Made by a program: the position numbers and the translations under genes. Of a stretch of 64,000 nucleotides of DNA, positions 34,786 to 54,008 are shown in pieces. The DNA is taken from NCBI GenBank assembly GCA_965221385.1, contig OZ244885.1, positions 1,088,643 to 1,152,642 on the forward strand. Reading direction: 5' to 3'. The notes beneath the pieces are model-generated. The model had not been told where the DNA came from and searched no databases. It saw only the letters and a list, made by a program, of their open reading frames with translations. The stretch's first letter is position 1. Each line of letters begins with the position of its first letter. The stretch is from Dehalococcoidia bacterium (lineage in GTDB: Bacteria > Chloroflexota > Dehalococcoidia > Lucifugimonadales > UBA3495).

Positions 34786-35816
34786 GACTCGCCGCGCAAG
34801 CTAAGGGCGGCTACTACCCCACGCCGGACCGGGTGGTGGACCTGCTGGCCGACCTGATCGACGCTCCCTACGCCCACAACCGGCGCAACGAAACCCTGCG
34901 GGTCCTCGACCCCTGCTGCGGGGGCGGCGACGCCCTGGCCAGACTGGTGGGGAACCTGGCCGGACGCAACACCGTTCCCATCGAGACATACGGCGTGGAG
35001 CTGCACCGGGACCGGGCCGAGGTCGCCCAGGAACTCCTCGACCACACCCTGGCGGTGGACCTGTTCCAGACCTCCATCGCCAACGGCGCCTTCGGGCTGC
35101 TGTACCTGAATCCTCCCTACGACTGGGACAAGGAGGACAGGCGGGTGGAACACGCCTTCCTCACCCACTGCACCAGGTATCTCAGCGACGGCGGCGTCCT
35201 GGTGTTCATCGTCCCCCGGCCTCGGCTCGCGGTGTCGGCCAGGTACCTGTCGTCCCACTACGGGCGGCTGCGGTGCTGGGCCTTCCCGGACCCGGAGCGG
35301 GAGGTCTTTGACCAGGTGGTTCTGCTGGGCAGCCGTAAGTCCAAACCCACGCCCGACGCTCCTGCCGAGGCGCAGTTGCTGACGTGGGCCGAGGTGGGGC
35401 CGGAGCCGCTGGCCCGCCAGACCTACCCCATGTACCGGCCGCCTACGACGCCGGCAGGGGACATCCTCTTCGCCACCCGCTCGGTGGATCCGGTGGCGGC
35501 GGCTGAGGAGGCCCGGCGCTCCGGCCTGTGGGTGAGCCGGGAGATCACCGACGCCCTCTGGCCGGTGGCCAACGCCCGAACCCGTCCGTTGATGCCCCTG
35601 CGCCGGGGCCACCTGGCCATGCTTGTGGCGGCCGGATTCCTGGACAACCTGGTGCTGGAGTCCGACGGCCAGCGGGTGCTTGTCAAGGGCCGCACCAGCA
35701 AGGAGATGGTTCTGGCCGAGGAGACCGAGGACAAGGAGGTCTATCGCGAGCGGCTCACGACCACCGTGGTCGCCCTTAACCTGGACACCGGCGCCCTGGC
35801 CGACATCACCGCGTAA
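34782..35816 (+). CDS. SAM-dependent DNA methyltransferase (NPPY type), of the kind paired with SNF2 helicases on conjugative elements
   Basis: GGYYPTP, VLDPCCGGGDAL (motif I), LLYLNPPYDWD (motif IV); ATGA-type overlap with the upstream gene. Confidence 0.8.
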   Translation: MRLAAQAKGGYYPTPDRVVDLLADLIDAPYAHNRRNETLRVLDPCCGGGDALARLVGNLAGRNTVPIETYGVELHRDRAEVAQELLDHTLAVDLFQTSIANGAFGLLYLNPPYDWDKEDRRVEHAFLTHCTRYLSDGGVLVFIVPRPRLAVSARYLSSHYGRLRCWAFPDPEREVFDQVVLLGSRKSKPTPDAPAEAQLLTWAEVGPEPLARQTYPMYRPPTTPAGDILFATRSVDPVAAAEEARRSGLWVSREITDALWPVANARTRPLMPLRRGHLAMLVAAGFLDNLVLESDGQRVLVKGRTSKEMVLAEETEDKEVYRERLTTTVVALNLDTGALADITA

Positions 35817-35938
35817 ATCAACCACATCGACGGCTGACAGTCAGCCGCATCACGAGGCCCCGCTCGCTTCCTTCTCTATGGGAGCGGCGGGGCCTCGCTT
35901 TGTTTCAAACCCCAACCCAACGACAAGGAGAATACCCC

Positions 35939-38230
35939 ATGAACCTGGGAGAGTTCATCGACACTTACAGGGACGCCATCGCCAAGCGGGTGGTGGAGTC
36001 GTATCCGCCTCTCTACCAGCCCTCTGACAACGGCCACGCCCTGCCCAAGCTGCTGCGCCAACCCCTGGGCGCCCAGGCCGACGCCATTCGCGGCGCCGCT
36101 CTGTCGCTCCAATCCAACCTGGGAACCACCGTGGTAGGCGAGATGGGCACGGGCAAGACCTTCATCGCCACCGCCGCCGCCTATGCCGCCGGATTCCGGC
36201 GCGTCCTGGTCCTCTGCCCTCCGCACCTGACCCGCAAGTGGAAGCGCGAGGTCGAGGAGACCATCCCCGTTGCCCACGCCGCCATCGTGTCGTCCATCAC
36301 CGACCTGGAACGGCTGCGACGCTACGCCGGAACCGGCCCACTGTTCGCCATCATGTCGAGGGAGCGGGCCAAGCTGTCCTATCGCTGGAAGCCCTCGGTG
36401 GTGGAACGCTGGGCCGTCTCCGGCGGCCGGCTGGTGCGGGACGAAACAACGGGCGAGCCGTTCAGGATTCCCTGCTGTCCCTCCTGCCATGCCCAGTTGG
36501 TGGACCGCGACGGCGTTCCCCTGGCCGACGCCGAGCTGAGCCGCCGCAAGCGCAACTGCTTCCGGTGCAAGAGTCCGCTCTGGCAGGCCGACGGCGCCGG
36601 ACCCCGCCGTTACCCCCTCGCCGACTACGTGAAGAACCGGATGCGTGGCTTCTTCGACCTGCTGGTCGGCGACGAGGTGCACGAGTACAAGGCTCGTGGC
36701 TCGGCGCAGGGCATCGCCGCCGGAGTCCTGGCCGACGCCTGCGGCAAGTCGCTGAGCCTCAGCGGGACTCTGATGGGAGGCTACTCTTCGACCCTGTTCC
36801 ACCTGCTCTACCGGTTCTCCCCGGAGATTCGGTCCGAGTTCGGCCGGTCTGAGGAAGGACGCTGGGTTCAACGCTACGGCTTCTTGGAGCAGACGGTCGG
36901 GCGCGACGACGAAGACCCGGTGGAGGACGGGCGCAACAGCCGGCGCCGCAAGTACCGCAAGGTGGTGCGGGAGCGACCGGGCCTGGCTCCATCCCCCCTC
37001 TTCCACCTCATCGGCAACTCCATCTTCCTGCGCCTCTCCGACGTGGCATCAGGCCTGCCCGACTACTCGGAGCGAATCCTGCTGTCGGGCATGGACTCCG
37101 AGGCGGACACCACCGGCTACTCCCAGCGCGGCGCCTACGACCGGCTGTTCACCGTGCTGCGGGAAGCCCTGGCCGATGCGCTTTCCAAAGGTTCCAAGCG
37201 GCTGCTGGCCGCCTACCTCCAGTCGCTGCTGGCCTACCCCGACGGCTGCACTCGCGGCGAGTCGGTCTTCGACCCCCGGAACGGCGACCTGCTGGTGCAG
37301 GTTCCGCCGCTGTCCGAGGACAAGCTCTACCCCAAGGAGAAGGCCCTGGTTGACCTGGTGGCCGCCGAGCGGATGGCCGGTCGCCGAGTCCTGGTGTACG
37401 TTACTCACACCGGAACCCGTGACATCACCGGCCGCATGGACGAAATCCTGACCCGGCATGGGTTCAAGGTGGCCGTGATGAAGGCCGACGCCGTGGCGCC
37501 GGAGCGACGGGAATCCTGGGTAGCCGACAAGGTCAAGGCGGGCGTCGACGTGCTCATCTGCCATCCCCGGCTGGTGCAGACGGGCCTGGACCTAATCGAC
37601 TTCCCGACGATCTGCTGGTACGAAACCGACTACTCGGTGTACACCATGCGGCAGGCGTCCCGCCGCTCCTGGCGCATAGGGCAGACCCGTCCGGTGCAGG
37701 TGGTCTTCATGGCCTACCGGAACACGCTTCAGGCTGACGCCCTGAAGCTGGTCGCCAAGAAGCTGCAATCCTCGCTGGCGGTGGAGGGCGAACTCCCCGA
37801 AGATGGGCTGGCTGCCTACGGCGATGATGGCGACGACCTGATGCTGGCCCTGGCCCGCAAGATCGTCAACGGCGACGCGGAGGACGAAGCGGAAACCGTC
37901 GAGCAGGTCTTCGCCCAAGCCCGCGACGCCGAGACTGCCGCCGAGGAACTGCTGGTGGACGACCAATGGCAGGCGGTGGAAGCTGCGCCGGGGGCGGTGG
38001 AGGTAATCGACAAGGGAGCGATGAAGCCGGTCGAACCGGCGGTCAACGGCCCTGGCGAACCGGACGTTCCGGAAGACCAGCAGTCCCTGTTCTCCTGGGC
38101 GGAATTCCTGGCAGAAGACCCCTCGCCAGTCAGGAAGCGGGGCCGCAAGCCGGAGCCAGCCGTAGCCTCCCTGTTCCAGTGGGCGCTGGAGCAGGAAAGG
38201 GAGGCCGAGCCGGTGGGAGCCGGCCGGTAG
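35939..38230 (+). CDS. SNF2-family helicase
   Basis: GEMGTGKT, DEVHEYK, and the helicase C block ..CHPRLVQTGLDL..QASRRSWRIGQ. Confidence 0.85.
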   Translation: MNLGEFIDTYRDAIAKRVVESYPPLYQPSDNGHALPKLLRQPLGAQADAIRGAALSLQSNLGTTVVGEMGTGKTFIATAAAYAAGFRRVLVLCPPHLTRKWKREVEETIPVAHAAIVSSITDLERLRRYAGTGPLFAIMSRERAKLSYRWKPSVVERWAVSGGRLVRDETTGEPFRIPCCPSCHAQLVDRDGVPLADAELSRRKRNCFRCKSPLWQADGAGPRRYPLADYVKNRMRGFFDLLVGDEVHEYKARGSAQGIAAGVLADACGKSLSLSGTLMGGYSSTLFHLLYRFSPEIRSEFGRSEEGRWVQRYGFLEQTVGRDDEDPVEDGRNSRRRKYRKVVRERPGLAPSPLFHLIGNSIFLRLSDVASGLPDYSERILLSGMDSEADTTGYSQRGAYDRLFTVLREALADALSKGSKRLLAAYLQSLLAYPDGCTRGESVFDPRNGDLLVQVPPLSEDKLYPKEKALVDLVAAERMAGRRVLVYVTHTGTRDITGRMDEILTRHGFKVAVMKADAVAPERRESWVADKVKAGVDVLICHPRLVQTGLDLIDFPTICWYETDYSVYTMRQASRRSWRIGQTRPVQVVFMAYRNTLQADALKLVAKKLQSSLAVEGELPEDGLAAYGDDGDDLMLALARKIVNGDAEDEAETVEQVFAQARDAETAAEELLVDDQWQAVEAAPGAVEVIDKGAMKPVEPAVNGPGEPDVPEDQQSLFSWAEFLAEDPSPVRKRGRKPEPAVASLFQWALEQEREAEPVGAGR

Positions 38231-41300: not shown

Positions 41301-43430
41301 CTGCTCCAAGTTAGGTTGCGTGATTCTCCAACCTCGGCTCAAGTCCTCCAAGGTTCTGTAGGCCAGAACGTCAATGATAGTTCGACGCCCAGTGTCATAG
41401 CCAGGGCCGCTTGCTACCGGCTCTTTCAGAAAGTCACCGGGCCGCAGTTGCAACGCATCGAAGACTTCCTGCCCCATCTGGTCGAACGTGAGGTGATGAT
41501 TTCTGCTCAGCGCCTCGACGATACCGGACCTGAGCAATGCCACCTGTACAAAGTCGTTCAGGTGACCGGCTTGCAGGGAGGCATCCTGCCGGTTGTCGGT
41601 AAAGCTGAGGGACTTCGTTTCCTCAGATGGTAGGCCCTGTTCAGCCATGCCCGAAACCGCCGCGTTCACCGCGATGGTAGTTGCTGTGGACCGCCCGGTT
41701 TGACTGAGCGAGGACAGTTTACGAAAGTCGTTCTGACGGGAATCATATACAGCACGACAGCGAAGGCATATTAGGAACGGTCTGGGCTGATACCATCCCG
41801 TCACACTGTTATCGGACCCGTCGTTTAGCCCTCCGCCAGGGGACGCGCTGTACTGGATGGGACGGAAGCGGGCATAGCCTGCCTTGATCGCCAGACCGGA
41901 ACGACGCTCGTTGAACCAGTGCTCCGGCAATTCGGTATCGTCGCCATTCCATAGGTCTTCTTCCTCAAGGGCAAAAAACCCGTCCTCTCCTTCGATGTCC
42001 TCGGTGGCTATTCCCACCATGGGTGAGCGAGGCACGAGGGACTCAAACCCTTCCCGTTCGGTCCGCGCAACCAAGTAATACTCCTGTCCGCACTCACGGC
42101 AGAAGGCCAGGGGGAATAGCAGTCGGTTTCCGTCGGCCCGATACTGGCCGTCCATCCTGAATTCCCTGGAACCAGCGTCCTCCAGGGTTGCGTAGACGCT
42201 GCTGCCTGATGAGAACCACTGGTGCAACCGGAAAGCCAACAATGGCTGACCGTCTTCGCCCTTGGCCTCATTACCGGCCTCCAATATTGCCCGCAACTGC
42301 TCCTCGCACTGTCCTACGGGAAGGCTGGTCTCGTCGGCCAGGCGCTGGGATATTGCGTCGAAGGTTTCCGGTGGACGGCGAACGAGCCTTCCGTCCTCTT
42401 CTTTCAGCCCGAAGGCTTCTTCCGTCCATGCCGTTAGTGGATGCTGGCGGACGGCATCTGCTTCCGGTGTCGGCGCCGGAGCCTCTACTGCCGCTCGCAA
42501 CGACGCGGCATCTGTGGGCGTTGGAACCCCAGCGACGCGCCGTAGCGTTTCGTCCACCACGTTGGCGGCGGGAACGTTCAGCCCGAAGAACTTGGACGCT
42601 AGTCCCGCCGCCGCTTCGTTGCGTTCTTGCCGGGATCCGCCGGTTACGATAGTGGCGCTTGTGGCGATGGCCTGGAGGTCTCTTCCGGCGCTTTCCTGCA
42701 AACGCCGAGTTAACATGGCTACATCGGCGCCCTGCCGTCCCCGATAGAAGTGCAATTCATCCATCACCAACGTTTGAAGGCCTTGAGTGGCGGTGGCAAG
42801 CAGTGGCCGTTCGGCGGGGCGAAGTAGCATGTACTCCGCCATGACATAGTTGGTCAGCAGAATATGTGGCGGGTCTTCCTTTATGCGCTCCCGTTCCTCA
42901 GCACGGTCCTGGCCAGTGTAGCGGTCAAAACGGACGGGAGAATCGGGATAGTTCTCCTCTTGGAAAGCTCGCAACGCATCCAATTGGCTGTTGATCAGGG
43001 CGTTCATCGGGTAGATAAGCAGCGCGCGGACAGAATGAGTCTCCGGAGAATTCCGGATGATGGCATCATAGATGGGCGCCAGGTAGGTGAGGCTCTTGCC
43101 GGAACCGGTCCCGGTGGTGACGACGTAGGATTCGCCCCGCAAACCTATTTCGATGGCCTCTCGCTGGTGGCGGAAGAGACGCAGGCCCTCGCCAAAATAG
43201 CGCGCGGTCTCCGACGCGATTACCCCGTCGGCCGCCAGCTCCCCCATGGTTCGATCCCGCTCAAAGGCTGGATTCAGCTGGAGAACCGCATCAGGCCAGA
43301 GTTCCCCCTCGTCCAGCATTTTTTGGACGTAATTGTCGATTCGCTGGTCCAGAACTTGGACAAAGCTCTTCACGTAGTCCCGGTATTCCGAAACTACCGT
43401 TTCCCTCAGCTTAAAGACATCCAGTGTCAT
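38340..43430 (-). CDS. DEAD/DEAH helicase fused to a DUF1998 (MrfA-type Zn-binding) domain and a C-terminal Vsr/DUF559-like endonuclease fold; DrmA+DrmB-like
   Basis: TTGTGSGKS, VMDELH, SATI; CNVCGY..CIHC and CAAACYECLLSYSNQ; C-terminal PDFYY..ICVFLDGPHHD..R..L..GFRV. ATG at 43430, 8 nt after the MTase stop. Confidence 0.8.
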   Translation of the reverse strand: MTLDVFKLRETVVSEYRDYVKSFVQVLDQRIDNYVQKMLDEGELWPDAVLQLNPAFERDRTMGELAADGVIASETARYFGEGLRLFRHQREAIEIGLRGESYVVTTGTGSGKSLTYLAPIYDAIIRNSPETHSVRALLIYPMNALINSQLDALRAFQEENYPDSPVRFDRYTGQDRAEERERIKEDPPHILLTNYVMAEYMLLRPAERPLLATATQGLQTLVMDELHFYRGRQGADVAMLTRRLQESAGRDLQAIATSATIVTGGSRQERNEAAAGLASKFFGLNVPAANVVDETLRRVAGVPTPTDAASLRAAVEAPAPTPEADAVRQHPLTAWTEEAFGLKEEDGRLVRRPPETFDAISQRLADETSLPVGQCEEQLRAILEAGNEAKGEDGQPLLAFRLHQWFSSGSSVYATLEDAGSREFRMDGQYRADGNRLLFPLAFCRECGQEYYLVARTEREGFESLVPRSPMVGIATEDIEGEDGFFALEEEDLWNGDDTELPEHWFNERRSGLAIKAGYARFRPIQYSASPGGGLNDGSDNSVTGWYQPRPFLICLRCRAVYDSRQNDFRKLSSLSQTGRSTATTIAVNAAVSGMAEQGLPSEETKSLSFTDNRQDASLQAGHLNDFVQVALLRSGIVEALSRNHHLTFDQMGQEVFDALQLRPGDFLKEPVASGPGYDTGRRTIIDVLAYRTLEDLSRGWRITQPNLEQTGLLRIEYAGLEKLTADESLWQELPTIGDATPETRTGVIRAFLDHLRMNLAIEAESLSESSTRSLRDRASQWLRDPWRFDDGDRLRAQGIALLPGVQTTRTEGRQRGVLRLGARSNVARYLRSAHAWNLERSISPQEAEDIVIGIVAALRGHLLSTVSDSGGEVRGVRLLAASMVWTAGDGRPAPPDPIRSRSLHLKREIAGAGEANDYFVHLYKHQARQLRGMLAAEHTGQVVSETRLAREDNFRRGELSALFCSPTMELGVDIRDLDTVHLRNVPPTPANYAQRSGRAGRGGRPALIVAYAAHGNAHDQYYFGRRNEMIAGAVTPARMDLQNQELVKAHLYSTWLATTGLRLGSGMAEILDLNESDFPIQPENAEALRGSNSEMRIIEAVDRAQQIIKRTEDIREAKWFSDDWIQDTLRSAPEALDRAFDRWRELYRSTLALRDAAHRVVDDPHASRKDREEAERREAEARREIGLLLNRTNRYEESDFYPYRYLAGEGFLPGYNFPRLPVRTTVTVEQNAQIIDRPRFLGLTEFGPGNQVYHEGRKHRIREALIPPAGIEGVLTSAKLCNVCGYAHDGEDVNVELCIHCETKLDGSTSGFPQRLLPQPTMRARATDRISSEEEERVRSGYDVTTHFNFSSTSAQRAIVRSKDGEEILEAVIAPGARVWRINHGWRRSERSGFTIDRQTGRWGVRDEPDETESDPAIVGPLTGVKPYVQDFRNILLLKPLRDIMSESSQISLLHALKRAIQFAYQVEEQEIEAELIGEGEFRRLLLWEAAEGGIGVWEQLTNEPGAIAKVALQALQLCHFEEQSEDSTADKDCAAACYECLLSYSNQLEHRHLDRHSIRSYLDLLSSSTTVRQLGKRTYIEQHEWLAGLADSTLEMDFLDFLYKGHIRLPDNAQNRPASDLHVQPDFYYEREGRPGICVFLDGPHHDEPGQQLTDSKVRAELQDLGFRVITIRYDKPFAEQVQNHPDVFVPVGV

Positions 43431-44309
43431 AGCTGCCTCTACTCGGTAAGGTCTGGGGCTTGACCTTGCGCCAGTTGGTCGTAGGCTTTCAGGACGTAGC
43501 GTTGGGTCCGGTACTCGCCGAACTCCCGCATCTCGTTGCGCTTGAGGCCTGGGAAAGATCGGGACGGCTCCGGCGCGTCGAGGATCCACTCCAAGTCGGG
43601 CCGATCCAATTGGTACATGTGGGCGTAGATGGCGTCCAACTCGCACTTCAGCCGGTGGCGCCGCTCCTCATCCCAAGGGAAGGGTGGGCCGTCGTAGCCA
43701 AGGTCCCGGGCGAAGGGTTCCAGGTCGTGGGCTGTGTAGGTCAGTTCCAGCACCCGTGGCACCACCATCTCCACCCAAGCAACGCCGGGCGAACCCTCCT
43801 CCAAGTACACCTCTGGCGGCAGCACCGGCAGCTGCTTCAAGATGAAGAAGTTCAGATTGACGCCCCCGACAGACAACCGAGCAGCCCAATCAAGCGGCAG
43901 ACTGTTCAAGTTTGCCAACACCAAGCATGAAGCGGTTGATTGCCAGTTTTCGTAGGCGAGAACTGGCGCACTATTGCCTACACCGCCGGTTGGCAGGTTT
44001 TCTGTCACCACAGTCCGCTCATTGGTTGCGTTAGTGATGCCCCGGATAGCCTGAAGCCAACTGGATGATTCCAGACGGATCAATGGCGCTTTGTTGCTCA
44101 CGGCGACTCCAGGTATTGCCATGCAGATTGCGGTTCGTTCGTTGGTTGGGCTTGCGATGTCCCTGAATACAATGACCCAACCGAAATGGTAGTGCCAGAA
44201 TCGCTGAGGCCCACGCTTGCTATCATTGCGGAAATTCCCGTTCGCTCGTTGGTCGGGTTGGTGATTTTCCTGAGAGCGAGCTGCGAGCCAATGCCGCGAG
44301 GGTACGTAG

Positions 44310-44417
<108 letters not shown>

Positions 44418-44913
44418 TAGGATGGTATCGCCGGTGTTTTCTGATTTGTCAAGTCTTTCAGCGACCTCTTTTTCCGGGACCCAGTAACGCGGCATGATCA
44501 CGGTGTAAGGGTCAGCCTTTTCCTCGTCGGTCAGCTCGCGGGCGTTGCCGCCCAGCAGGGCTTTCTCGTCCACGCCATCAAAGGTGGCAAAGCGGTGGTC
44601 GTACTGGTGGAACAGCTTGGCCTCATATAGTGGCAGGTAACGTTCCACATCCTCCCCTTCTCCTCGCACGAACACGTTGCTCTGTAGCCCAAATCCGGCC
44701 TCCTCAAAGCTCCCTCCAGGAGCGGAAGATGCTGGAGTCGTTGGACATGTCGAACATTCTCTGGAATCTGACGCCCCAGGGGTTGCTGACTGAGGGAGAG
44801 TCTTTCCTTCTAGCCGGTAGCCCTGAGCTTCCAGTTCTGTCCGAGTTCGAAACAGACCGGATGCGCTTGACATGTGAAACATCGACTGAAACCGTACGCT
44901 CCAAGGATTCCTG

Positions 44914-44922
44914 CCCCCCCCC
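44914..44922 (-). repeat. G9 homopolymer (C9 on the plus strand) within the methyltransferase gene
   Basis: Counted directly; lies at the switch between track ORFs 44704..47916 and 44223..45074. Confidence 0.95.
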
Positions 44923-47879
44923 GGCACCTTGGCTGTCGCGGACGAAAACGCCGGCTCGCTGGTACATTTTGGCGGCGACTTCCATGTCCCGCCGAGTGCG
45001 GAATGTGGGGCTGGTTCGGGTATTGGGGTTGAACAGGGCAAAGTCTTGAGGCGCCAGGTTGTACCTACGGGCATCGTCCTGTAGTTGTTGAGATTGCGTA
45101 AGGTAGAAGGCGAACTCCGCCTGTGGGCTGGGTCGGCCCGTTCCGGTCATGGTGAGCAGGCAGAACTTTATCCTGCTGTCGATACCGGCAAAGACCTTCT
45201 CTCGATTTTCGAAGTCAAAGAGGCTGACCAGGGAGCGGCGGTTCACCAGGTCACCGAAAAATACCTTGGTTGTATCGTCTGTGGCTATCCCTGAAGGCAC
45301 GATGATGCCGGCGCGGCCCGATGGGTGGCAGATTATCCGCGCCGTTTCCGAGAATATGGAGTAGGTATTGACATCGCCGCGTCCGGCCAAAGGAAACCGA
45401 TTGCTGTTGCGAACAAAGCGGCTGACCGACTCTGAATCGTGAACGGCGTCATCAAATGCCTTGGCCAATGCAGGATTGGTGTTGGGCAACCTGTTGATCA
45501 ATCTGCTGCGGGCGGCCTTGTTGGGGGCGTTAGCGATTTCAGGGTCTCGTGTGGCAAAGAACTCCTTCTCCTGGAGCTTGATCCGCTCCCAGGGCGGGTT
45601 GCCCAGCACCACGTCGAAGCCGCCGGCCTCCATTACGTCGGGAAACTCTAGAGGCCAGTGGAAGAATCGTTGCCGTTCCGACGCCCCCATAGCGGCCCCC
45701 ACCAACTTCGCGTTCGCGCTATGGTCCTGTAGGGCATTCCGGACGTTCTGGGTGGTAGGAACCATGTCTACCCCGTCCGAACCTGCCGGCTTAAGCGGAG
45801 CGAAGAAGCCGTAGGTCCACAGGTCGCAGGCCGTCTTGATCTCCCACCATCGGGTGCCCTGCCCACGCAGTTGTTTGTACAGGTCCTCCTTGGCTTTCAC
45901 CTCTGACGGGCTGCGTTCCTCCAACTGGCCGAAGGCTGCGAAGTCCTCGCCCAATTTCGCCGAGGACGATGGAAGTATCTCCAGATTCATGCTCTGCTGT
46001 CCCGTCAACTCCCGCCGGTTGCGATTACGGTAGTCAGTTGCCGCTCTGTTGTCATCGCCGGTAACGGTCCTGTAGGCCCCGTCCGGGATGCCCTCTTCCA
46101 AAACCGTAAAGTCACTGACGCCCACCAGACTATCGCCGCACTTGATGCGATGGTCCAGGAAGCTGAGGGGCAGGCCGGCGGCGTGGCTCTCCAGCCACAA
46201 TGCCACCTTGCACAGGTCCACCGCCAAAGGATTCTTGTCCACGGCATAGATGCAGTTGCGGACCACCTCTCGCAGGGCGGCGCGGTAGTCTGAGGGTGAC
46301 GGCTCGTCCTCACCAGTACGAACCTTCGCCAGCTCCCGTGCGATGCGGCGGGCGGCCGCCAGCAGGAAATGGCCGGAACCCGAAGCTGGATCGCAGACCC
46401 GCAGGCTCAGCAACGCCGCCGCCTTATCCTCCGGCGTAGTGGCCTCATTCAATCGCTCTTCCATCACGGGCGCCAGGGCGCTTTCGACCAGTTCCCGAAC
46501 CAGTTCCGGTGGCGTGTAGTAGGAACCCGTTTCCTTCCGTTCGGTGCCGGCGGCCAGCCTGAAGTGCGCAGGCTCACCAAGGTCATCTCCCAAATCCACA
46601 ACCGGGCGGTAGTCCAGGAGGCTCTCATAAACGGAGCCGAACTCCTCAACGTCCAAATGCGCGTAGTTGACCCGGCGGCGGATGCCCTTGTCACGGAAGG
46701 TAGATAGATGAAGCAGGGTTAGCAGCAGGGACTTGTTGGGGCAGAAAGCCTTCTCGATGTCCTTGCAGGCGCTCGATCCAAACAATTCCCCGTTTAGCGG
46801 AGACATACCCAGGTGGGTCGCGGCTTGTTCATCGCGGAACATGCGGAATGTCTGGGCGAGCCTTTCCCAGAGGTCGCCATGGTTGTCGTCGGCGAAGTTG
46901 CCTTCGGCACGGTCTCGAAGGCTGGAGACGCTGTAGTATCGGTCATATATTGCCTGCGCCTCCAGAGAGGCGCCAGAAGACAACAGCCTGCGCTCCTCGG
47001 TAACCATGAGGAAGAGCATCCGGTACACGAAATTGAGAAGCTGCCTGAAGTACCCTGCTTCTGTGAGCCGGCCGGCGCGGATGGCTTCTCGCAAGGTGTC
47101 GTTGCGAGGATGTCCAACCAATGCCGACCCCAGCTCAGCGAGCGCCAGCTCCACGCCGTGGCGCAAATTCTCCCGCACCCTTCCGCCTTCCTCGATGCCT
47201 TGGGTGTAGTATTGCTCCAACAGGCACTCATGGGGTTCAACGCCGTCGCCAGGAAATCGGCTGGCGTGAAGCAGTCGGTAGAGCACCACGAAATCCCCGT
47301 AGGCATTGCTCTCCAGCATCGAACGGAGATCGAACTCCAAGTAGGTCGGCCTGGACAGGCGAGCGCTATCGCGTAGGAGCCGTAGTTTGGCTCCATTGGA
47401 CACCAGGCCCCAAAGGGTCTCCGAGCGGTTCAGGTAATCCTGAACCAAGGCGTGGGGCGTTCGACGGCTGGCGGTTCCGCGCCGATCCAGGTCCTCTCTG
47501 ATGCCGACGATGTGCAACGGTGGCGCATTCTCGGAGTCATGGATACGGTGAGAAATTGGGAACAACGTACCCCCGACGTCGGCCGAGGCTCTTTGGTATT
47601 CCACATTCGTGAATCCCAACAGCTCCATGAACCCGGTCATCCAGTCTCGCCGGGTTAGCGTCGTTTCGCTCTCCCTGGAATTCTCCAAGCGGGCATCGAA
47701 GGCGACCCAATACTTGCGGGCCGCGTCAAAGGCCTTCCCCGTTTCGTCGGGGAGACGGGAGCCAGGAGGCAGATTGAAGTCCTCAACCGCCTGACCCGCG
47801 ACTCTCCCTTCCTCTGACGCTAGTCGCTCCAGCAAGTCTGGGGGAAACAATCCGCCTTCGATATTGATGGTCGTGTAGC

Positions 47880-50711
47880 TCATGGAGATGCTCCAGCTGG
47901 CGTCAAAACGTAGCACCCAATGATGTCCGGCGGCAGGTGAGGTTCTACCTTAACCTTGGATCCCCTAACGGTTCGCCGCAATCGAGCGTGGGCGCCTTCA
48001 AGGGCCGCAACACGCTCAGCGATAATGCCATTGGCCCAGTCGCCATCCAGCATTCCCAAGGCCCATTCGACGTGCTCGTGACGCTCTGCCTGGGAGATGT
48101 TGGCCACGGGTTCAGCATCGCTGAGAAGCCGGAGGGCTTCATCCTGCAAAGGGGAAAGCCAACGTAACCCATCATCGCCTCGCTGAAATGCAGCCGCGAC
48201 GACTTCCTCGGCGAACTGTTGGCTCTCCGCTTCTATCAGGTATCGCAAACGCAATATAAGCACCGCCGTGCGTCGTTCTACCGCACGGGTGACAATGGCT
48301 CCAGAACGGGAGAAGAGCTGGTCGTTACCTTCAAGGGAACGTGAAAGCACTGATTCTGCCGTGGTTGCGACAATGGGGTGATTGCGCCCCAACAGAGTTA
48401 CTCCCGGCGGGGGTACGCCCTTGAAGGACACCTGCATCGGGAAGGACAACCGCTGGTCTCGCGCAATAATACGGGTCTGCAAATCGCCTGGCGCCAAGGT
48501 GAACACCCCGTCAGTCTTGGTGTCGCGGAGACCTCCGTTGAATCGCTGCACGGCGTTTGCCATGAACCGATACACGTCATCGGCGCTGCCCAACACTGGA
48601 TCCATCTCGGCAAGCTCGCCAGCAACCTCGTCGGGCTGGATTCCGCTTTGGGCGAAATAGGCCCGGGATTTTCCGTCCTTGTCGGCCATTTCCTCCCACG
48701 CCTCATGCAGGCGACTAACTGATGGATCCTCCAGGGCGAGACCGATTTGCTGCCCCTGGCTCGGCCGTCTCAGCAGCACACTGTCCACCAGAGCGTTAAC
48801 TACCTGCTCCGATTCTACAGGCACGGGCACGGAAATGCCGAGGCTTTGGCGGATGGTCTGAGCCTTTCGTAGTAGGACATCAAGGACAACCAAATCGATC
48901 TGGTTGTCCGCTCCGTATAGGAGCACGGTCTTGATTGTGGGCTTGCTCTGGCCAAAGCGATCAACCCTGCCTTCGCGCTGCTCCAGACGATTTGGGTTCC
49001 AGGGAAGATCATAGTGAACCACGGCGTCGTAGTGGTCCTGTAGGTTTACGCCCTCGCTCAGACAATCCGTAGCCACCAGGACTCTCACCGGCTGTTTTGC
49101 CAACTCCAAGACGATTTCCTTGCGTTGCTCGCTGTCGCCTGCATTACCGGTTACTGCCTTGACCGTGAGGCCCCCGTGACTGCTTTCCAATGACTGCTGA
49201 ATGTGCTCTGCTACGTAGTGGGCGGTCTGAATGAAGCGGCAGTACACTATGGGCCTGTATCCCTCGCCCAGAAGTTCGGATACAATCTTGGCGGTTTCTC
49301 GGACTTTGGCGTCCTTGCCAGGTTTGGCCAGGTCATCGGCGCGTTTCAGGAAATCGTCCAATCTCCGAATTTCGCGGGGCCCAAGAGAGCCGCTGTGGTC
49401 GTCCTCGTGGGTCGCTGGAACATAATCGGTGGCCTGTTCCTCATCGACGGAATCCATTAGTTGCTGGCCAAATGAATCGTCAGGCGCGAATCCGTTCTGT
49501 CGTCCGGACGTGGGCGGTTTGCGGTTCTGTAGCGCGGCCCGGGCGGCCCAGGGGCTGGACAAGACACAACGTAGGATCGACAGAGCCGCCCAGTAACGGA
49601 CTCTCTGGCGTTGGTCCTGCACGCCTGAACCGGAAACCTGCTCCCGGCAATAGGACAGTATGTCTTCGTACAGCCTGTGATAATCCGCCGACATCCTATA
49701 GCTCCGTTCGACAGCCTCCCTTTGGGGGAACGGCGTGTCAACTCCCAGCCAGCGTTCCAGGTCAATCCTCCTCCGCTGAATGAAATGAGGCAGCAACTTT
49801 TGGCGGGGAACCTCCGTACCGTCGGGCGGATCGAAGCTGGTATCGATGATACCGAGGAGGGACCTGAAGCTCTCCTCAATTCCGCTATGGGGAGTAGCGG
49901 TGGTAAGGATCAGGTGCCTGTTCGAGTCCTGCGCCAAATCCCGCAGCAGCGCATACCGTTGGTGTTGAGACCCTCCCCGGTCACCCCTCGGTCGTGCGGC
50001 GGTGTGGGCTTCATCCATAACAATAAGGTCTGGCGCATTATCCAAGAATCGCTGACGATTTCGGTCCGATTTTACGAAATCTATGCTTACTACGAGGTGG
50101 CGGTAGTGCTGATAGAGAGACACGTCTCCGCGAGGTAAGGCTCGCTCCAACCTCGCGATTCTGGAAGACTGGACAACAGCCGCTTGGATGTTGAATTTCG
50201 TGCGTAGCTCCTCCTCCCACTGCTCGCAGAGGTGTGGAGCGCACAGAACACCAACCCGACGCACAACTCCTCGGTCCAACAGCTCTCGCGCAATCATCCC
50301 AGCCTCAATGGTTTTCCCGATGCCAACGTCATCCGCGATCAGTAGGCGAACGGGATCGAGGCGAAGCGCCATGATTAGAGGAACAAACTGGTATGGGCGT
50401 GGAACAACGGAAAGCCGCCCCATCGACCGGAAAGGGCCGGCGCCGCTCCTCAGTCCGAGCCGCACCGCATCCCGAAGCAGAAGCGCCCCGGTAAAGTCTC
50501 CAGCCGAATTCGGGTCAGGTTGCTGGTACTCCGAATGCTTTAAGGCCGTCGGTTCCAGGGGCAGATAGACCCCTATGGCATCCTCGTCGGAGCCGTCAAT
50601 GGGTCGCAGTCTGGCCACGTTTGGTTCATCAGGCGGCAAAACCACCCAGTCCCGGCCGCGCGCGCGGACCAACTGCCCTGGCGTCCACTTGCTCTCCTGC
50701 CGTGAAGCCAC
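47880..50711 (-). CDS. drmD: SNF2-family helicase, DrmD-like
   Basis: LIADDVGIGKTIEAG, VMDEAHT, TATPHSG, helicase C ..LATDCLSEGVNLQ..REGRVDRFGQ; ATGA overlap with the MTase start. Confidence 0.8.
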   Translation of the reverse strand: MASRQESKWTPGQLVRARGRDWVVLPPDEPNVARLRPIDGSDEDAIGVYLPLEPTALKHSEYQQPDPNSAGDFTGALLLRDAVRLGLRSGAGPFRSMGRLSVVPRPYQFVPLIMALRLDPVRLLIADDVGIGKTIEAGMIARELLDRGVVRRVGVLCAPHLCEQWEEELRTKFNIQAAVVQSSRIARLERALPRGDVSLYQHYRHLVVSIDFVKSDRNRQRFLDNAPDLIVMDEAHTAARPRGDRGGSQHQRYALLRDLAQDSNRHLILTTATPHSGIEESFRSLLGIIDTSFDPPDGTEVPRQKLLPHFIQRRRIDLERWLGVDTPFPQREAVERSYRMSADYHRLYEDILSYCREQVSGSGVQDQRQRVRYWAALSILRCVLSSPWAARAALQNRKPPTSGRQNGFAPDDSFGQQLMDSVDEEQATDYVPATHEDDHSGSLGPREIRRLDDFLKRADDLAKPGKDAKVRETAKIVSELLGEGYRPIVYCRFIQTAHYVAEHIQQSLESSHGGLTVKAVTGNAGDSEQRKEIVLELAKQPVRVLVATDCLSEGVNLQDHYDAVVHYDLPWNPNRLEQREGRVDRFGQSKPTIKTVLLYGADNQIDLVVLDVLLRKAQTIRQSLGISVPVPVESEQVVNALVDSVLLRRPSQGQQIGLALEDPSVSRLHEAWEEMADKDGKSRAYFAQSGIQPDEVAGELAEMDPVLGSADDVYRFMANAVQRFNGGLRDTKTDGVFTLAPGDLQTRIIARDQRLSFPMQVSFKGVPPPGVTLLGRNHPIVATTAESVLSRSLEGNDQLFSRSGAIVTRAVERRTAVLILRLRYLIEAESQQFAEEVVAAAFQRGDDGLRWLSPLQDEALRLLSDAEPVANISQAERHEHVEWALGMLDGDWANGIIAERVAALEGAHARLRRTVRGSKVKVEPHLPPDIIGCYVLTPAGASP

Positions 50712-50819
50712 GCGATTACCTACCTATTTTCCAAGTCTTTGTGCCATCGTTTGACATCATCAAATTATTACCTTAATATTGCAACACGCTTCACTAACCC
50801 AGCGACGGAACCTGCCGTG

Positions 50820-51656
50820 ATGACCACCGACACCAAGCCCAAGCAAACATTGGTAGGGATCGAACTCATCCGATTGCTTACCTCCGAGGGCGACCGTATC
50901 TTCACCATCGAACGGGCTCGCGAGTTGGCGCCCCGTGTCGGGCTGAGAGATTCCTATCTTCGGGAGGCATTGTACCACCTTCGCCAGAACGGATGGATAG
51001 TCTCCCTACGACGGGGACTGTATGCCCTTTGCCCGACGATTCCAGGCGTGCCGGCTGCGCACGAGTACGAAATCGCCACGTTTCTGGTGACGCCTGCAGC
51101 CATCTCCCATTGGTCAGCCTTGAGCTATCACGGCCTCACCGAGCAGCCGCCTAGGACTGTCTTCGTATCGACCACCACGCAGGCTTCCGTTCCCCGGTCC
51201 AGGCGAAACGATGCGGACCGCCTTGACCAGGGCTATGAAGTCCTGGGTACAGCATACCAATTCATTCAACTCAAGCCGGAACGCTACTTTGGGGCTGAAA
51301 AGGTTTGGCTCAACGACGCCCGGGTGAGGATTACCGACCTGGAACGCACACTGCTGGACGCGCTATCCATGCCCCAACACTGCGGCGGATTTGCCGAGGC
51401 CCTCCACGCCTTTCGTTCAGTGACGGACAGGTTGGACATCGACCGGATCGTGGGTTATGCCCTCCAGCTCGATGGAGCTACCGCCAAGCGTCTCGGCTGG
51501 GTTTTGGAGCAAGACGGGATAGATTCACCGCAACTGGATGTCCTCGCCGACTTCCCAGTCAGGGGATACACGCGGCTCGACCCAACCGGGCCCAGAAAAG
51601 GGAAGTGCGGCGGGCGGTGGATGATTCAGGAGAACCTGCCCGGAATGCTTGCATGA
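50820..51656 (+). CDS. abiEi: AbiEi-family antitoxin/transcriptional regulator
   Basis: ..LRRGLYAL.. ISHWSALSYHGLTEQ .. DLERTLLDAL pattern. Confidence 0.75.
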   Translation: MTTDTKPKQTLVGIELIRLLTSEGDRIFTIERARELAPRVGLRDSYLREALYHLRQNGWIVSLRRGLYALCPTIPGVPAAHEYEIATFLVTPAAISHWSALSYHGLTEQPPRTVFVSTTTQASVPRSRRNDADRLDQGYEVLGTAYQFIQLKPERYFGAEKVWLNDARVRITDLERTLLDALSMPQHCGGFAEALHAFRSVTDRLDIDRIVGYALQLDGATAKRLGWVLEQDGIDSPQLDVLADFPVRGYTRLDPTGPRKGKCGGRWMIQENLPGMLA

Positions 51657-52531
51657 TGAGACCACTACACACCCGTCTTCAAGAAGCCCGCCAACGCCTG
51701 GGCCTACCATGGGAAGTCCTGGAGCGTGACTACCTGCTGTCGTGGGTCTTGGCAGGGATAGCGCGAACGCCGGCCCTCCGCGACTCTCTGGCATTCAAAG
51801 GCGGCACGGCCCTCAAGAAGTGCTACTTCAGGGACTATCGCTTTTCCGAAGATTTGGACTTCACGGGACTGGACAGCGCCCCTACTGGGGAGGCGATGGA
51901 AGGGGCCATGAAAGAAGCCATCGAGAGTGCGTTGGAGTTGCTAGAGGAATATGCCCCCATCGTTCTGGAATGCCAAAGGTACTCGGAGCGGGAGCCGCAC
52001 CCAGGCGGTCAAGAGGCTTTCGTCATACGCGCTCAGATGCCGTGGCAGAACCAGCCCCAGACCCGAATCATGGTGGAGGTAACGCTTGACGAGAAGGTTT
52101 TCTGGCCGATGGAAAGACGGCAAGTCGTCCACGAATACGGCGAGCCTCTGGAGGCTGAGGTCCTGATCTACTCGCTGGAAGAGGTGGTGGCCGAGAAGCT
52201 GCGGGCAATCCTCCAGCACGCGGATACACTGGAACGGCGGGGCTGGAGCCGTTCCAGGGCACGGGACTACTACGACCTTTGGCGTGTGTTGGGAACTCAC
52301 CGACAACGGTTGGATCTGACCGAGTTCGACGCCAATCTGCGGGACAAATGCGCTCTCAGGAATGTGGCATTCACCGGGCCGGCTGATTTTTTCGCTCCTC
52401 GAATGATGGGCTATGTCCGCGAAACGTGGCGACAGTCGTTAGGCCCACTGGTCCCAAACCTGCCTGCCTTCGATGCGGTTATTGAAGACCTACGCCCGCA
52501 AGTTTCGGGACTCATGGCGGGCGACGACTAG
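51653..52531 (+). CDS. abiEii: AbiEii/AbiGii-family nucleotidyltransferase toxin
   Basis: LAFKGGTALKKCYFRDYRFSEDLDFT; ATGA overlap with abiEi. Confidence 0.8.
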   Translation: MMRPLHTRLQEARQRLGLPWEVLERDYLLSWVLAGIARTPALRDSLAFKGGTALKKCYFRDYRFSEDLDFTGLDSAPTGEAMEGAMKEAIESALELLEEYAPIVLECQRYSEREPHPGGQEAFVIRAQMPWQNQPQTRIMVEVTLDEKVFWPMERRQVVHEYGEPLEAEVLIYSLEEVVAEKLRAILQHADTLERRGWSRSRARDYYDLWRVLGTHRQRLDLTEFDANLRDKCALRNVAFTGPADFFAPRMMGYVRETWRQSLGPLVPNLPAFDAVIEDLRPQVSGLMAGDD

Positions 52532-52775: not shown

Positions 52776-54002
52776 TTGGCGCAAGAGGTCGTTAGGGGCA
52801 TGAGGGAAGCGGCCTCCCGTGGCTTCTGGATGACCACCAACGCCCCCTACGGCTACCAACGGGTTTACGTCCAGGACGGCGCCAAGAAGCGACCCCGTTT
52901 GGCCCTGAATCCCCCGCACGACGCCGTGGTCCGCCGCATCTTCGATCTCACCCTCCAGGGCAAGACTTCCCTGGACATCCTGAAGACCCTCAACGGCGAG
53001 GGCATCCCCTCGCCCATGGGAAAGCAGTGGCGCAAGACCACCGTTCACAAGGTGTTGGGCAACGAAGCCTACACGGGAACACTGGTCTGGGGCGAAAACG
53101 CCAAGGACAACGCCCCGCCGGTGCGGGTGGAGAACGCCTTTCCCGCCATCGTGACGAAGGGAGAGTTCGCCCGGGTCCGCAGCCTCTTGGAGTCCCGCGC
53201 CCCCAAGGTAACCCACCCTCGGCGGGCCGCCAGTCCCTACCTGCTGAGCGGGCTGGCAAAGTGTGAGACCTGCGGCAAGGCCCTGACTGCCGCCGAAGCC
53301 AAGAGCGGCAAGTACACCTACTACGTCTGCCAATCCATGCTCAAGCTGGGCAAGGATGCCTGCAACTGTCCCCGGCTGAATGCCAAAGACTTCGAACAGC
53401 TCATCATCTCCACCCTTCGGGAACACATCCTCACCGAGTCCAACATACGAGATTTGGTCAAGATGTTGGATGAGGAGATGGACGGCGTGGCCAGGGATCA
53501 AAGGGACCGGCTGGAGACGGTGGAGGCGGAACTGGCCGAGGTTCGGCGGAAGATGGACCGCATCTGGTATTTTGTAGAGAACACCAAACTGGACATGGCC
53601 GACGCCTCGGAGCGCATCCTAGAACACCGCCACCGGCGGGAGCATCTGGAAGCGGCCGCCGAGGAAGCCAGGGCCGTCCTGGCGGAACGGAGGCAGTTGC
53701 TGGACAGCGCCGACGTGATCGCCGCCTTCGCCACCGAGATGGGGGAGTTCCTGCGCACCAGCGAGATCACCGAGACGCGGGCCTTCATCCGGTCATTCGT
53801 GAAGGAGGTGACAGTGGTTGCCGGCAAAGCCACCATCATCTACACAATCCCCACCCCCAAGGACAGCCCCATCAGGGGAGCGGACATGGCGGAAGTGGCT
53901 TTGAATGGAGGTTTTCGCAGTACAATACATGATGGTGGGCCGTGTGGGGGTCGAACCCACGACACCCGGATTAAAAGTCCGGTGCTCTGCCGACTGAGCT
54001 AA
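52776..54002 (+). pseudogene. Element A large serine recombinase, C-terminal fragment (continuation of 11232..11654)
   Basis: Starts (L)AQEVVRGMREAASRGFW..; recombinase domain, zinc-ribbon-like CETCG..C..C and a coiled coil. The last ~23 codons are translation through the antisense of tRNA-Lys, so the true end is uncertain. Confidence 0.85.
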
Positions 54003-54008
54003 CGGCCC
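53933..54008 (-). tRNA. tRNA-Lys(UUU): tRNA-Lys (anticodon UUU), encoded CCA
   Basis: Hand-folded cloverleaf: acceptor GGGCCGU/ACGGCCC, D arm GCUC/GAGC, anticodon stem CCGGA/UCCGG with loop CUUUUAA, T arm GUGGG-UUCGACC-CCCAC. Confidence 0.9.

Follow-up and report, generated by a model that had tools for sequence, protein, structure and literature searches.

Related systems

Repeat-slippage phase variation is generally portrayed as a two-state switch of pathogens, with two of the three reading frames dead. The phase-variable methyltransferases known as phasevarions include Type III mod genes with tetranucleotide repeats and Type I hsdM/hsdS genes with repeats (PMC5909438, PMC7383803), and a passage of PMC9881135 cites the Type IIG enzyme Cj0031 with its poly-G tract. 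Programmed inversions alter DrmMI of Class 1 DISARM and similar Type II enzymes, at loci where a YprA-type helicase and DUF1998 are encoded in one CDS (PMC9881135). Class 1 DISARM is made up of DrmD, DrmMI, DrmA, DrmB and DrmC. In Serratia the site methylated by DrmMI is non-palindromic, and losing the enzyme causes no autoimmunity (10.1101/2021.12.28.474362), so that phase variation of such an enzyme would be affordable.

The locus described here lies in a window of 64 kb, the whole stretch of DNA that was analysed. Like the phasevarions, it has a non-triplet hypermutable repeat inside the open reading frame (ORF) of an N6-adenine methyltransferase, where copy number sets the frame. In phasevarions the two wrong frames simply truncate the protein. 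In the window the repeat is found three quarters of the way along the gene and is followed by three staggered copies of a TNERT-containing block and two stop/start overlaps, and the wrong frames therefore appear to yield defined alternative products. The hosts also differ, being uncultured bacteria of many phyla known from metagenome-assembled genomes (MAGs) and not pathogens adapted to a host, and so does the enzyme, which is DrmMI/PglX-like. As in the DrmMI inversions, variation of a DrmMI homologue would be heritable, reversible and internal to the gene, but it would proceed by repeat slippage with frame-staggered copies and not by site-specific inversion between alternative segments. A literature search found only repeat-driven ON/OFF methyltransferases and DrmMI inversions, and in it the present module is undescribed. 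The TNERT blocks are quite likely parts of a conserved, repeat-driven reading-frame switch in the target-recognition region of a DrmMI-like defence methyltransferase. The phage-defence enzyme is probably made as one piece, as two, or in a crippled form.

Organization of the locus

The gene belongs to a class-1 DISARM-like operon (Table 1), and its product is an adenine methyltransferase that is DrmMI-like and has a PglX/MmeI-like fold. It matches the Pfam families Eco57I (5.9e-19) and N6_Mtase, as well as the PADLOC DrmMI profile PDLC02643 (E = 4e-80, mainly over residues 451-777), and the NPPW catalytic-type motif is near-invariant, being present in at least 90% of the sequences in alignment A1. 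Translation likely starts at ATG 47883, which overlaps the TGA of the upstream SNF2 helicase, so that the operon itself uses a stop/start overlap. As assembled, the gene is split into four ORFs with one frameshift outside any repeat. Dropping one G and one AGCC unit restores a single stop-free ORF of 1490 codons, counted from GTG 47916. This copy of the methyltransferase may be silent, because both repeats (G9 and AGCC) are out of phase and an additional non-repeat frameshift follows the second NPW block. The exact tract lengths in the assembly are uncertain, since the repeat count and the length of G9 could have been mis-called, the latter through long-read homopolymer error.

Table 1. Features of the methyltransferase gene in the window (minus-strand features, positions in the window)
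Feature	Position	Strand	Frame and remarks
DrmMI-like N6-adenine DNA methyltransferase gene	43439..47883	-	three frames as assembled
G9 homopolymer, first frame-shifting tract (module 1)	44914..44922	-	
NPW block X1 (NPWSVRFQSMFHMSSASGLFRTRTELEAQGYRLEG)	44805..44909	-	frame 0
NPW block X2 (26 residues)	44704..44784	-	frame 2, stop TGA 44706-44704
(AGCC)27 perfect tetranucleotide repeat, second frame-shifting tract (module 2)	44310..44417	-	100% match
Block a (GSQLALRKITNPTNERTGISAMIASVGLSDSGTTIS)	44182..44289	-	frame 2
ATGA overlap	44223..44226	-	third-frame TGA (end of 283-aa ORF) overlapping a-frame ATG
Relay ORF, 42 codons (MIASVGLSDSG...YLESP)	44098..44226	-	a frame; bounded by both overlaps
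Block b (GWVIVFRDIASPTNERTAICMAIPGVAVSNKAPLIR)	44075..44182	-	frame 1
GTGA overlap	44098..44101	-	a-frame TGA overlapping b/c-frame GTG
Block c (SWLQAIRGITNATNERTVVTENLPTGGVGNSAPVLA)	43955..44062	-	frame 1; contiguous with C-terminal domain
C part	43439..44101	-	GTG 44101, last strand of b, block c, C-terminal helical domain, TAG 43441-43439

The gene order resembles that of Class 1 DISARM, with an SNF2-type helicase, the N6A methyltransferase and then a DEAD helicase with a DUF1998/MZB domain. The helicases, however, score higher to DpdE and DruE. The upstream SNF2 protein matches DrmD at 2e-92 and DpdE at 3e-186, and the best match of the downstream DEAD, Helicase_C and MZB protein is DruE (1e-96, against 2e-13 for DrmA). 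The DrmA- and DrmB-like parts are fused in the window; the related locus L001 has one gene for the helicase and another for the MZB protein. Again unlike Class 1 DISARM, no DrmC (PLD match) occurs among the scanned ORFs adjoining the operon. The ATG of the next gene, that of the downstream helicase (43430), stands 8 nt past the methyltransferase TAG. The neighbouring genes that were checked comprise helicases, an AbiEi/AbiEii pair, a second methyltransferase and a tRNA gene, and an Rfam scan of the window found only tRNA. Nothing seen at the locus spoke for or against the ICE supposed in the original prediction. The BREX partners PglZ, BrxC and BrxA/B are absent from the flanks, which hold helicases and AbiE, so the locus is not BREX.

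The three blocks and their conservation

The original prediction reported three diverged tandem copies of a TNERT segment on the minus strand, with TNERT at 44253, 44146 and 44026, and this description is accurate. A six-frame translation of the entire window contains exactly three TNERT motifs, and the peptides given for the three copies are all found in the translations. Repeat search recovers one three-copy family (44007-44046, 44127-44166 and 44234-44273) with 68-78% nucleotide identity, and confirms the proposed spacings of 107 nt between a and b and 120 nt between b and c. Copy a is one frame off relative to b and c, also as proposed. It is in frame 2, defined by codon starts p at which (45198-p) mod 3 = 0, and b and c share frame 1, the frame of the ORF at 43439-44122. 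The a frame was said to close 35 codons later; it runs for 38 codons past ...MIAS to the TGA at 44100-44098. The copies are paralogues that have diverged from a single block of roughly 36 residues with a strand-loop-strand-strand arrangement.

The same block was followed through a subfamily of 83 loci (roughly 45-70% identity) with a block hidden Markov model. These loci come from MAGs of more than 10 phyla, several of them named sponge symbionts. Three blocks are present in 80 of the 83 loci, of which all but one (79/80) have an a-to-b spacing of 2 mod 3; since the loci are linked by descent and horizontal transfer, these counts do not represent independent events. Strict TNxRT-type motifs are retained in 51 loci, where spacings of exactly 107, 120 and 120 nt are the most frequent. 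When each block is paired with its nearest neighbour from another locus, the two share their type (a, b or c) in 135 of 138 cases. The conservation of blocks and spacing, and the clustering by type and not by genome, indicate an old triplication that is kept by purifying selection. Gene conversion between the copies was dropped as an explanation, given that the blocks cluster by type and not by locus. An inversion shufflon was likewise dropped. The inverted repeats seen at the locus are short and weak, and no invertase was seen there.

Canonical relatives have one block and no repeat, and block c is the counterpart of their single block. Among 98 database relatives that retain the PRYW anchor, 75 have one block about 20 residues past PRYWV, and the match lengths of the 15 listed plasmid homologues (39-43% identity) fit the one-block form, H8 being longer. 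The expectation that the block occurs once thus holds for the wider family and is wrong for the close subfamily, where alignments show the block normally repeated and the three copies are no oddity. Nor is the suggestion supported that the 900 bp or so around them are "unusually plastic". Blocks, spacing and frame offset are the same in 80 of 83 loci and only the repeats are hypervariable.

Stop/start overlaps

Two four-base overlaps, ATGA within block a and GTGA within block b of the window, connect the three frames. A third-frame stop at a+28 is found in 35 of 51 loci (27 as ATGA and 8 as GTGA), and the a+27 codon is ATG in 31, GTG in 9 and CTG in 3. The a-frame stop at b+46 is present in 30 of the 51, in 28 of them as GTGA or ATGA. 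At b+45 the codons are GTG (25), ATG (14), TTG (1) and GTA (1), with no GTC, GTT or CTG. When b+45 is valine it is encoded by GTG in 25 of 26 cases, compared with 29% in the background, and the homologous site in block c has mixed valine codons. The serine that follows b+45 is AGY in 31 of 31. About a third of the loci lack a canonical overlap exactly at a+28 or b+46, several of them having one nearby. Structural demands could account in part for the M and V residues at the overlaps, but this codon usage points to selection on the overlaps at the level of synonymous codons.

The sequences ahead of the overlaps resemble ribosome-binding sites. In the window GGAG (44110-44107) lies 5 nt upstream of the GTGA overlap. 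Across the family the pairing with the anti-Shine-Dalgarno sequence upstream of the two restarts comes to -4.78 and -3.83 kcal/mol, versus -2.43 kcal/mol in the background (p = 4e-10 and 1e-4), and it also exceeds that at the homologous sites of the other blocks. Of 39 glycine codons at a+15, 35 are GGA or GGG, compared with 36% in the background. In the relative L002 an independent gene caller began a 223-aa C-part ORF (9549) exactly at b+45. Translational restart at the overlaps is therefore a plausible reading of these sites. They share a four-base overlap and an upstream Shine-Dalgarno-like motif with the ATGA/GTGA coupling of adjacent genes, but lie inside one gene, between alternative frames, and would be used only in certain phases. 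Programmed ribosomal frameshifting was dropped; no slippery heptamer was seen by inspection at either overlap.

Predicted structure

The AF2 model of a fused homologue (P0001) has a mean pLDDT of 83.5. In it the stretch of residues 881-934, made up of the repeat and the copy a read out of frame, is disordered. Confidence is good for strands one and two of b, and residues 962-1000, comprising the last strand of b and the first two of c, are looped out. The choice of strands by AF2 may simply track the alignment. The looped-out segment begins at the restart codon, and a break at this position should thus be structurally harmless according to the model. The best Foldseek matches of P0001 are 9EWZ and 8C45 (E about 1e-13, TM 0.37-0.44), and the best-matching folds are those of BREX PglX/BrxX, CamA and MmeI. 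A sequence search of P0001 against solved structures found nothing and only the fold search was informative. The enzyme resembles BREX PglX/BrxX and MmeI (8C45, 9EWZ, 5HR4) in having a methyltransferase core followed by a target-recognition region. It differs from them in showing about 10% sequence identity and no sequence match, and in the lack of BREX partners nearby.

The N-terminal product of the a frame (P0045) was also modelled, with the C part absent. Block a and the entire post-core subdomain are of low confidence, which suggests that this short form may not fold alone. The model neither proves nor excludes docking of block a.

A proposed reading-frame switch

In the proposed mechanism a hypermutable repeat, with a unit length that is in no case divisible by three, would fix the frame in which ribosomes leave it. 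The two overlaps, ATGA in a and GTGA/ATGA in b, would each step the frame back by one. Exit in the b/c frame would give a single full-length fusion protein, with the repeat and copy a, read out of frame, as a disordered linker. Exit in the a frame would give an N-terminal methyltransferase that ends in block a and stops at GTGA, followed by a coupled restart into the C part (the last strand of b, block c and the C-terminal domain), that is, a split enzyme. Exit in the third frame, the one predicted for ribosomes leaving (AGCC)27 in the window as assembled, would give an N part without a block that stops at ATGA, and translation would be relayed through the 42-codon ORF and GTGA into the C part. 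The restarts would probably also hold ribosomes on the message, keeping the close-following DrmA/B-like helicase gene translated. The three states may differ in function, and could do so in methylation, in helicase coupling, or in the dosage of the C part and the downstream genes.

An unlikely alternative is an ordinary ON/OFF contingency locus in which only the fused state works. Block a, the overlaps and the relay ORF would then serve to end wrong-frame translation or to limit polarity on the helicase, and the N part with block a would have no function of its own. Such switching has precedents among phase-variable methyltransferases (PMC5909438, PMC7383803), and it agrees with the low confidence of the modelled a-state N part. 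Polarity would also matter here, as downstream genes begin 8-10 nt after the methyltransferase stop. However, ribosomes read the portion of block a that precedes the ATG (LALRKITNATNERTG) only when a shares the frame of the N part, and its protein sequence is nevertheless conserved, with coding-type entropy. In its own frame block a has codon-position entropies of 1.02/0.55/1.33, a coding-type pattern, and over 46 loci no stop codon interrupts it, whether it is read in its own frame or, by read-through, in that of b. The off frames of block c contain 68-75 stops in the same comparison. Each block is maintained at the protein level in the frame that it occupies. Some loci have a three-frame variant with one block in every frame, and ATGA or GTGA is found at c+46 in 4 of 7 of them; a block in every frame would be pointless if a single frame were useful.

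Repeat tracts and frame states

The prediction of two simple-sequence tracts in the gene was correct, one being a perfect (AGCC)27, a unit that, like AGTC, also occurs in Type III mod genes, and the other G9. Of the 83 loci, 75 have a simple-sequence repeat at the site corresponding to (AGCC)27, immediately before the blocks. The family repeats sit 36-130 nt past the PRYWV codons and reach 61 units. Among 82 tracts the unit is 1 nt (11 tracts), 2 nt (4), 4 nt (29), 5 nt (25), 7 nt (8) or 8 nt (5) long, and none has a unit of 3, 6 or 9 nt. The site carries dozens of different units across the family, with new units in most lineages. Related loci differ in copy number, as in L031 and L033 (AGCC x9 vs x19, flanks 93.5% identical) and in L034 and L049 (ACCG x50 vs x19, flanks 96.8% identical), neither being a strain-level pair. 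For the window allele an exact look-up of the 227-aa C-terminal ORF in public assemblies returned no record, and an exact 30-nt repeat flank had no match in metagenome contigs. Repeat switching within a population is presumed. The predicted products place the assemblies in the three frame states in about equal numbers (26, 23 and 20), an even spread that would also be compatible with states of no consequence.

This leads to a still less probable explanation, frameshift buffering. Repeats would grow for mutational reasons in a tolerant linker, with staggering and restarts keeping the enzyme at work in equivalent states. The equal frequency of the three states fits this, as do the position of the repeat and copy a in a disordered linker and the presence of one complete block on offer in every state. 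A tolerant linker, however, should best accept units of 3, 6 or 9 nt, precisely those missing from the 82 tracts. The appearance of different units at the same site in most lineages and the existence of canonical relatives with neither repeat nor extra blocks also argue against it.

It is very improbable that the gene is a decaying pseudogene with recent sloppy tandem duplications and frameshifts. The four ORFs of the window gene and its frameshift outside any repeat would suit such a history, but identical spacing and frame offsets in 80 loci of more than 10 phyla contradict it, the blocks group by type and not by locus, and removal of one G and one AGCC suffices for an ORF without stops. That the copies are repeats collapsed or expanded in sequencing or assembly is hardly credible, as mis-calling could affect the repeat count and the length of G9 but the blocks are only 68-78% identical to one another and were found independently in 82 other assemblies. 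The preferred reading thus remains a reading-frame switch, whose architecture, on the evidence of sequence comparison, is conserved and under selection.

A second module

The G9 tract and two NPW blocks, 500 nt upstream, follow the same design as the AGCC module. The reported NPW duplication is real; the NPW codons begin at 44909 and 44784, 125 nt apart and in different frames. An extra T in a cTTTga run puts the remainder of the gene in the frame of X1. Poly-G of 10-12 nt is present at the equivalent site (-411 to -429 nt from the PRYWV codons) in L016, L028, L036 and L042, and paired NPW blocks with a spacing of 122-125 nt are found in these four loci and in L041. In this poly-G/NPW module of six loci, GTGA falls on the valine of NPWGV in 3 of the 5 relatives.

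Implications

A wider reading, for which the chances are a little short of even, makes the system a bacterial counterpart of alternative exon choice. The repeat would select the frame, and the staggered blocks and overlaps would turn this choice into fused, split and block-less forms. The result would be a heritable and reversible three-state switch, or a dimmer, for a DISARM-like system, spread across many phyla of uncultured bacteria that include known sponge symbionts, and arisen at two sites of the gene. Dozens of units occur at one site and none has a length divisible by three, which is unusually clear evidence of selection for hypermutability itself. Annotation pipelines will label such genes as pseudogenes or fragments, and the design offers a compact template for engineered multi-state genetic switches. 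If the proposed switch is correct, selection appears to have placed defined products in the other frames through block duplication and restart sites, and contingency loci would extend to the defence systems of uncultured bacteria in many phyla, some of them known sponge symbionts.

Three frame-staggered blocks

The methyltransferase gene carries three paralogous copies of a TNERT-containing segment (blocks a, b and c) whose cores are 68-78% identical to one another and spaced 107 and 120 nt apart. A six-frame translation of the 64-kb window has TNERT nowhere but at 44253, 44146 and 44026. Translation places block a one frame off from b and c. A tetranucleotide tract precedes the blocks, and two NPW blocks (X1 and X2), 125 nt apart and in differing frames, lie beside a poly-G tract. 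The original prediction described all of this accurately, and the positions, both spacings, the frame offset, the tracts and the NPW duplication were recovered.

Features of the methyltransferase gene and its surroundings (positions in the window unless stated)
Feature	Position	Strand	Remarks
Block cores a, b, c	44234-44273, 44127-44166, 44007-44046	minus	~40 nt, diverged; repeat detection
(AGCC)27	44310-44417	minus	perfect; directly upstream of blocks
G9	44914-44922		~500 nt farther upstream than (AGCC)27
ATGA overlap	44226-44223	minus
GTGA overlap	44101-44098	minus	GGAG 5 nt upstream
Methyltransferase gene	47883 to 43439	minus	Eco57I/N6_Mtase-type adenine methyltransferase; PADLOC DrmMI profile matches
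SNF2-type helicase, DpdE/DrmD-like	upstream of methyltransferase		TGA overlaps methyltransferase ATG as ATGA, 47880-47883
DEAD + MZB(DUF1998) helicase, DruE/DrmA-B-like	downstream of methyltransferase		1700 residues; ATG 8 nt after methyltransferase TAG, 43428-43441
AbiEi/AbiEii toxin-antitoxin pair	50739-52531	plus	adjoins system, as in L001 and L002
tRNA gene	53936-54008	minus
Second methyltransferase (DUF6094/N6_Mtase) + helicase	34569-38230	plus
Unrelated tandem array	57704-57767		16/32-nt unit, 4 or 2 copies
Unrelated tandem array	27702-27754		11-nt unit, ~5 copies
Extra homopolymers, L059, L071, L081, L082	about -2960 to -3300 nt		relative to PRYWV codons
Extra homopolymer, L052	-1791		relative to PRYWV codons

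Conservation of the blocks

Together with the window, 82 related loci (L001-L082), all fetched from MAGs, gave 83 loci for comparison. Their hosts include Latescibacterota, Dehalococcoidia, Rhodothermales, Acidimicrobiia, Longimicrobiales, Alpha- and Gammaproteobacteria, Gemmatimonadota and others. Some of them, Porisulfidus for instance, are named sponge symbionts (PMC12988363). The names of the remaining MAGs suggest a sponge origin.

Protein search and alignment show that the nearest relatives keep b and c in frame and carry an out-of-frame stretch matching copy a; in the homologous protein P0045 copy a is read in frame, followed by a stop. Scanned with a block HMM, 80 of the 83 loci show all three blocks. 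Blocks a and b are spaced 2 mod 3 in 79/80. Blocks b and c are spaced 0 mod 3 in 69 loci, which represent the standard form, and 2 mod 3 in nine, a variant in which each block occupies a different frame. Blocks of the same type share 0.48-0.55 amino-acid identity between loci, different types within a locus 0.28-0.36, and 135/138 cases have a same-type nearest neighbour. Given this constancy of number and clustering by type, the claim that the block region is unusually plastic is not borne out. The original prediction also stated that the block occurs once in the family. This holds for the wider family, where a single block lies ~20 residues after the conserved anchor motif PRYWV with no repeat, but fails for the close relatives with their three. 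Among the matches listed, plasmid genes of cultured bacteria have match lengths that fit one block, except H8 with a longer match.

In L073 and L079, insertions of ~410 and 550 nt widen the b-to-c spacing from 120 nt to 532 and 671 nt. Whole modules, each with its own repeat unit, are also found as paralogues in a single MAG, on one contig: three on OZ220481.1 (L071, L081 and L082, with units TCCCGACA x5, CCAGCGG x12 and CCAAGAT x16) and two on CBDBEC010000002.1 (L034 and L038, with ACCG x50 and with ACCG x54 + CCGA x45).

A hypermutable tract upstream of the blocks

A simple-sequence tract lies 36-130 nt downstream of the PRYWV codons in 75 of the 83 loci. Its unit varies between loci (GCCGA x61, ACCG x54 then CCGA x45, C x29, ATCGACAG x20, AG x17), and related alleles keep the unit and differ in copy number. 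Unit lengths in 82 tracts are 1 (11), 2 (4), 4 (29), 5 (25), 7 (8) and 8 (5) nt. Units of 3, 6 or 9 nt are found in 0/82, for which the chance at a one-third expectation is ~4e-15, a guide only since the loci are not independent. Among standard loci, 20 have an upstream frame that matches b/c, 23 one that matches a, and 26 one that matches the third frame; in the window it is the third.

Four loci (L013, L037, L038, L040) have two tracts back to back, e.g., GAGCA x16 then GCAGA x14, or CGAC x13 twice, an arrangement that suggests the replacement of one unit by another in progress. Long homopolymers (C17, G12, C13) near or just upstream of the methyltransferase 5′ end in some loci suggest that certain lineages have a third switch site.

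Selection acting on copy a and the stop/start overlaps

In 46 standard loci the entropy of copy a in its own frame is 1.02 bits at the first codon position, 0.55 at the second and 1.33 at the third, the pattern of coding sequence. These loci contain no stop in copy a in its own frame or in the b frame reading through, compared with 68 and 75 stops in the off frames of copy c. Thus copy a is constrained in two frames simultaneously.

Where the other frames end, the stop in most loci overlaps a potential start. The third frame stops at a+28 (nucleotides relative to the block) in 35/51 loci, without exception as ATGA (27) or GTGA (8). The a frame stops at b+46 in 30/51, as GTGA or ATGA in 28 of the 30, and at b+49 as ATGA in three more. 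The codon at b+45 is GTG (25), ATG (14), TTG (1) or GTA (1), with no GTC, GTT or CTG, whereas Val codons at the homologous site of block c are GTG 12, GTA 11, GTT 7 and GTC 4 and the background GTG share of Val codons is 29%. The following Ser codon is AGY in 31/31 (TCN 0), and the codon at a+27 is ATG (31), GTG (9) or CTG (3). The bias at the overlaps therefore extends to synonymous codons.

Anti-Shine-Dalgarno pairing upstream of the two putative restart sites, at -4.78 and -3.83 kcal/mol, is stronger than at random positions in the same genes (-2.43 kcal/mol; p = 4e-10 and 1e-4) and also exceeds that at the corresponding places in the other blocks. Ahead of the putative restart in block a, at a distance of 12 nt, the Gly codon is GGA or GGG in 35/39, versus a background of 36%. 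An independent gene caller placed the start of the C-terminal ORF of L002 exactly at b+45. In the three-frame variant an overlap of the same kind occurs at c+46 in 4/7 loci. The two overlaps in the window delimit a 42-codon ORF.

The poly-G/NPW module

Two NPW blocks, 122-125 nt apart, are present in five other loci (L016, L028, L036, L041, L042), with 10-12 nt of poly-G just upstream in all but L041, whose sequence does not reach the site. In 3/5 of these relatives the frame of the first block ends in a GTGA that falls on the NPWGV Val codon of the second block. The window (44704-44922) has GTCA in place of GTGA and so lacks this stop, and an additional T in cTTTga after X2 shifts the remaining gene into the X1 frame. 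X1 is therefore the read-through path in the window, and the roles of the NPW blocks are swapped relative to the five relatives. Computationally, deleting one G and one AGCC unit yields a single 1490-codon ORF. Both tracts are out of phase as assembled, so the window copy is presumably off; the length of G9 could be a homopolymer error.

Operon and neighbourhood

The gene order of the operon is similar to that of class 1 DISARM (10.1101/2021.12.28.474362), but no PLD gene was identified among the scanned ORFs flanking it. AGAGG immediately precedes the ATG of the downstream helicase, and the junctions between genes of the operon use coupling signals of the same kind as the sites inside the methyltransferase. 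The neighbourhood resembles a defence island. The ORFs scanned in the window showed neither an integrase nor a conjugation gene that would speak for the ICE of the original prediction. In L002 an IS element with rve/HTH transposase genes (11622-13012) splits the DrmA-like helicase. The methyltransferase there has lost the repeat and is fixed in the a state, and the L002 system is probably in decay.

Structure models

The AF2 model of P0001, the best full-length homologue, has a pLDDT of 83.5, and its nearest folds are BREX PglX/BrxX, CamA and MmeI. Judged by the position following the methyltransferase core in these enzymes, the blocks probably lie in the DNA target-recognition region. Residues 881-934 (repeat-encoded peptide and out-of-frame copy a) are disordered, 937-961 (first two strands of b) confident, and 962-1000 (last strand of b and first two of c) looped out; confidence returns in the final c strand and the helical domain at the C-terminus. 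The model thus suggests that the strands of just one block fit the fold. An in-frame repeat, whose tolerance the original prediction had left to modelling, appears to be accommodated with its extra strands as a loop. The choice of strands may be partly an artefact of alignment with single-block relatives. The putative restart codon corresponds to M964, where the looped-out segment begins, so the fold should tolerate a break in the chain at this point. The N part of P0045 alone (a state) is modelled with low confidence past the methyltransferase core, which suggests that it needs the C part; its block a is predicted as three strands.

A proposed three-state switch

Repeat length would choose the frame. 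The b/c frame would give a single fused protein. The a frame would give an N part ending in its own block a and stopping at GTGA, where ribosomes would restart to make the C part (end of b, c and the C-terminal domain). In the third frame an N part without a block would stop at ATGA, and a relay via the 42-codon ORF and GTGA would again lead to the C part. The relay would also sustain translation of the helicase, since 8-10 nt separate the methyltransferase stop from the start of the next gene. Both the architecture and selection for it have good support, and translational restart at the overlaps is strongly inferred.

Repeat-driven phase variation of methyltransferases is already well known (PMC5909438, PMC7383803); variation is also known in DrmMI homologues, through programmed inversions, and in Cj0031, through a poly-G tract (PMC9881135). 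For paralogous blocks staggered in frame and joined by internal restarts, literature searches found no account, nor any for the module in the MAGs compared here. Losing DrmMI causes no autoimmunity in Serratia, where methylation turns DISARM off for marked DNA (10.1101/2021.12.28.474362), so that varying a DrmMI-like enzyme would be both affordable and consequential. The states may differ in methylation, in helicase coupling, or in C-part and downstream-gene dosage.
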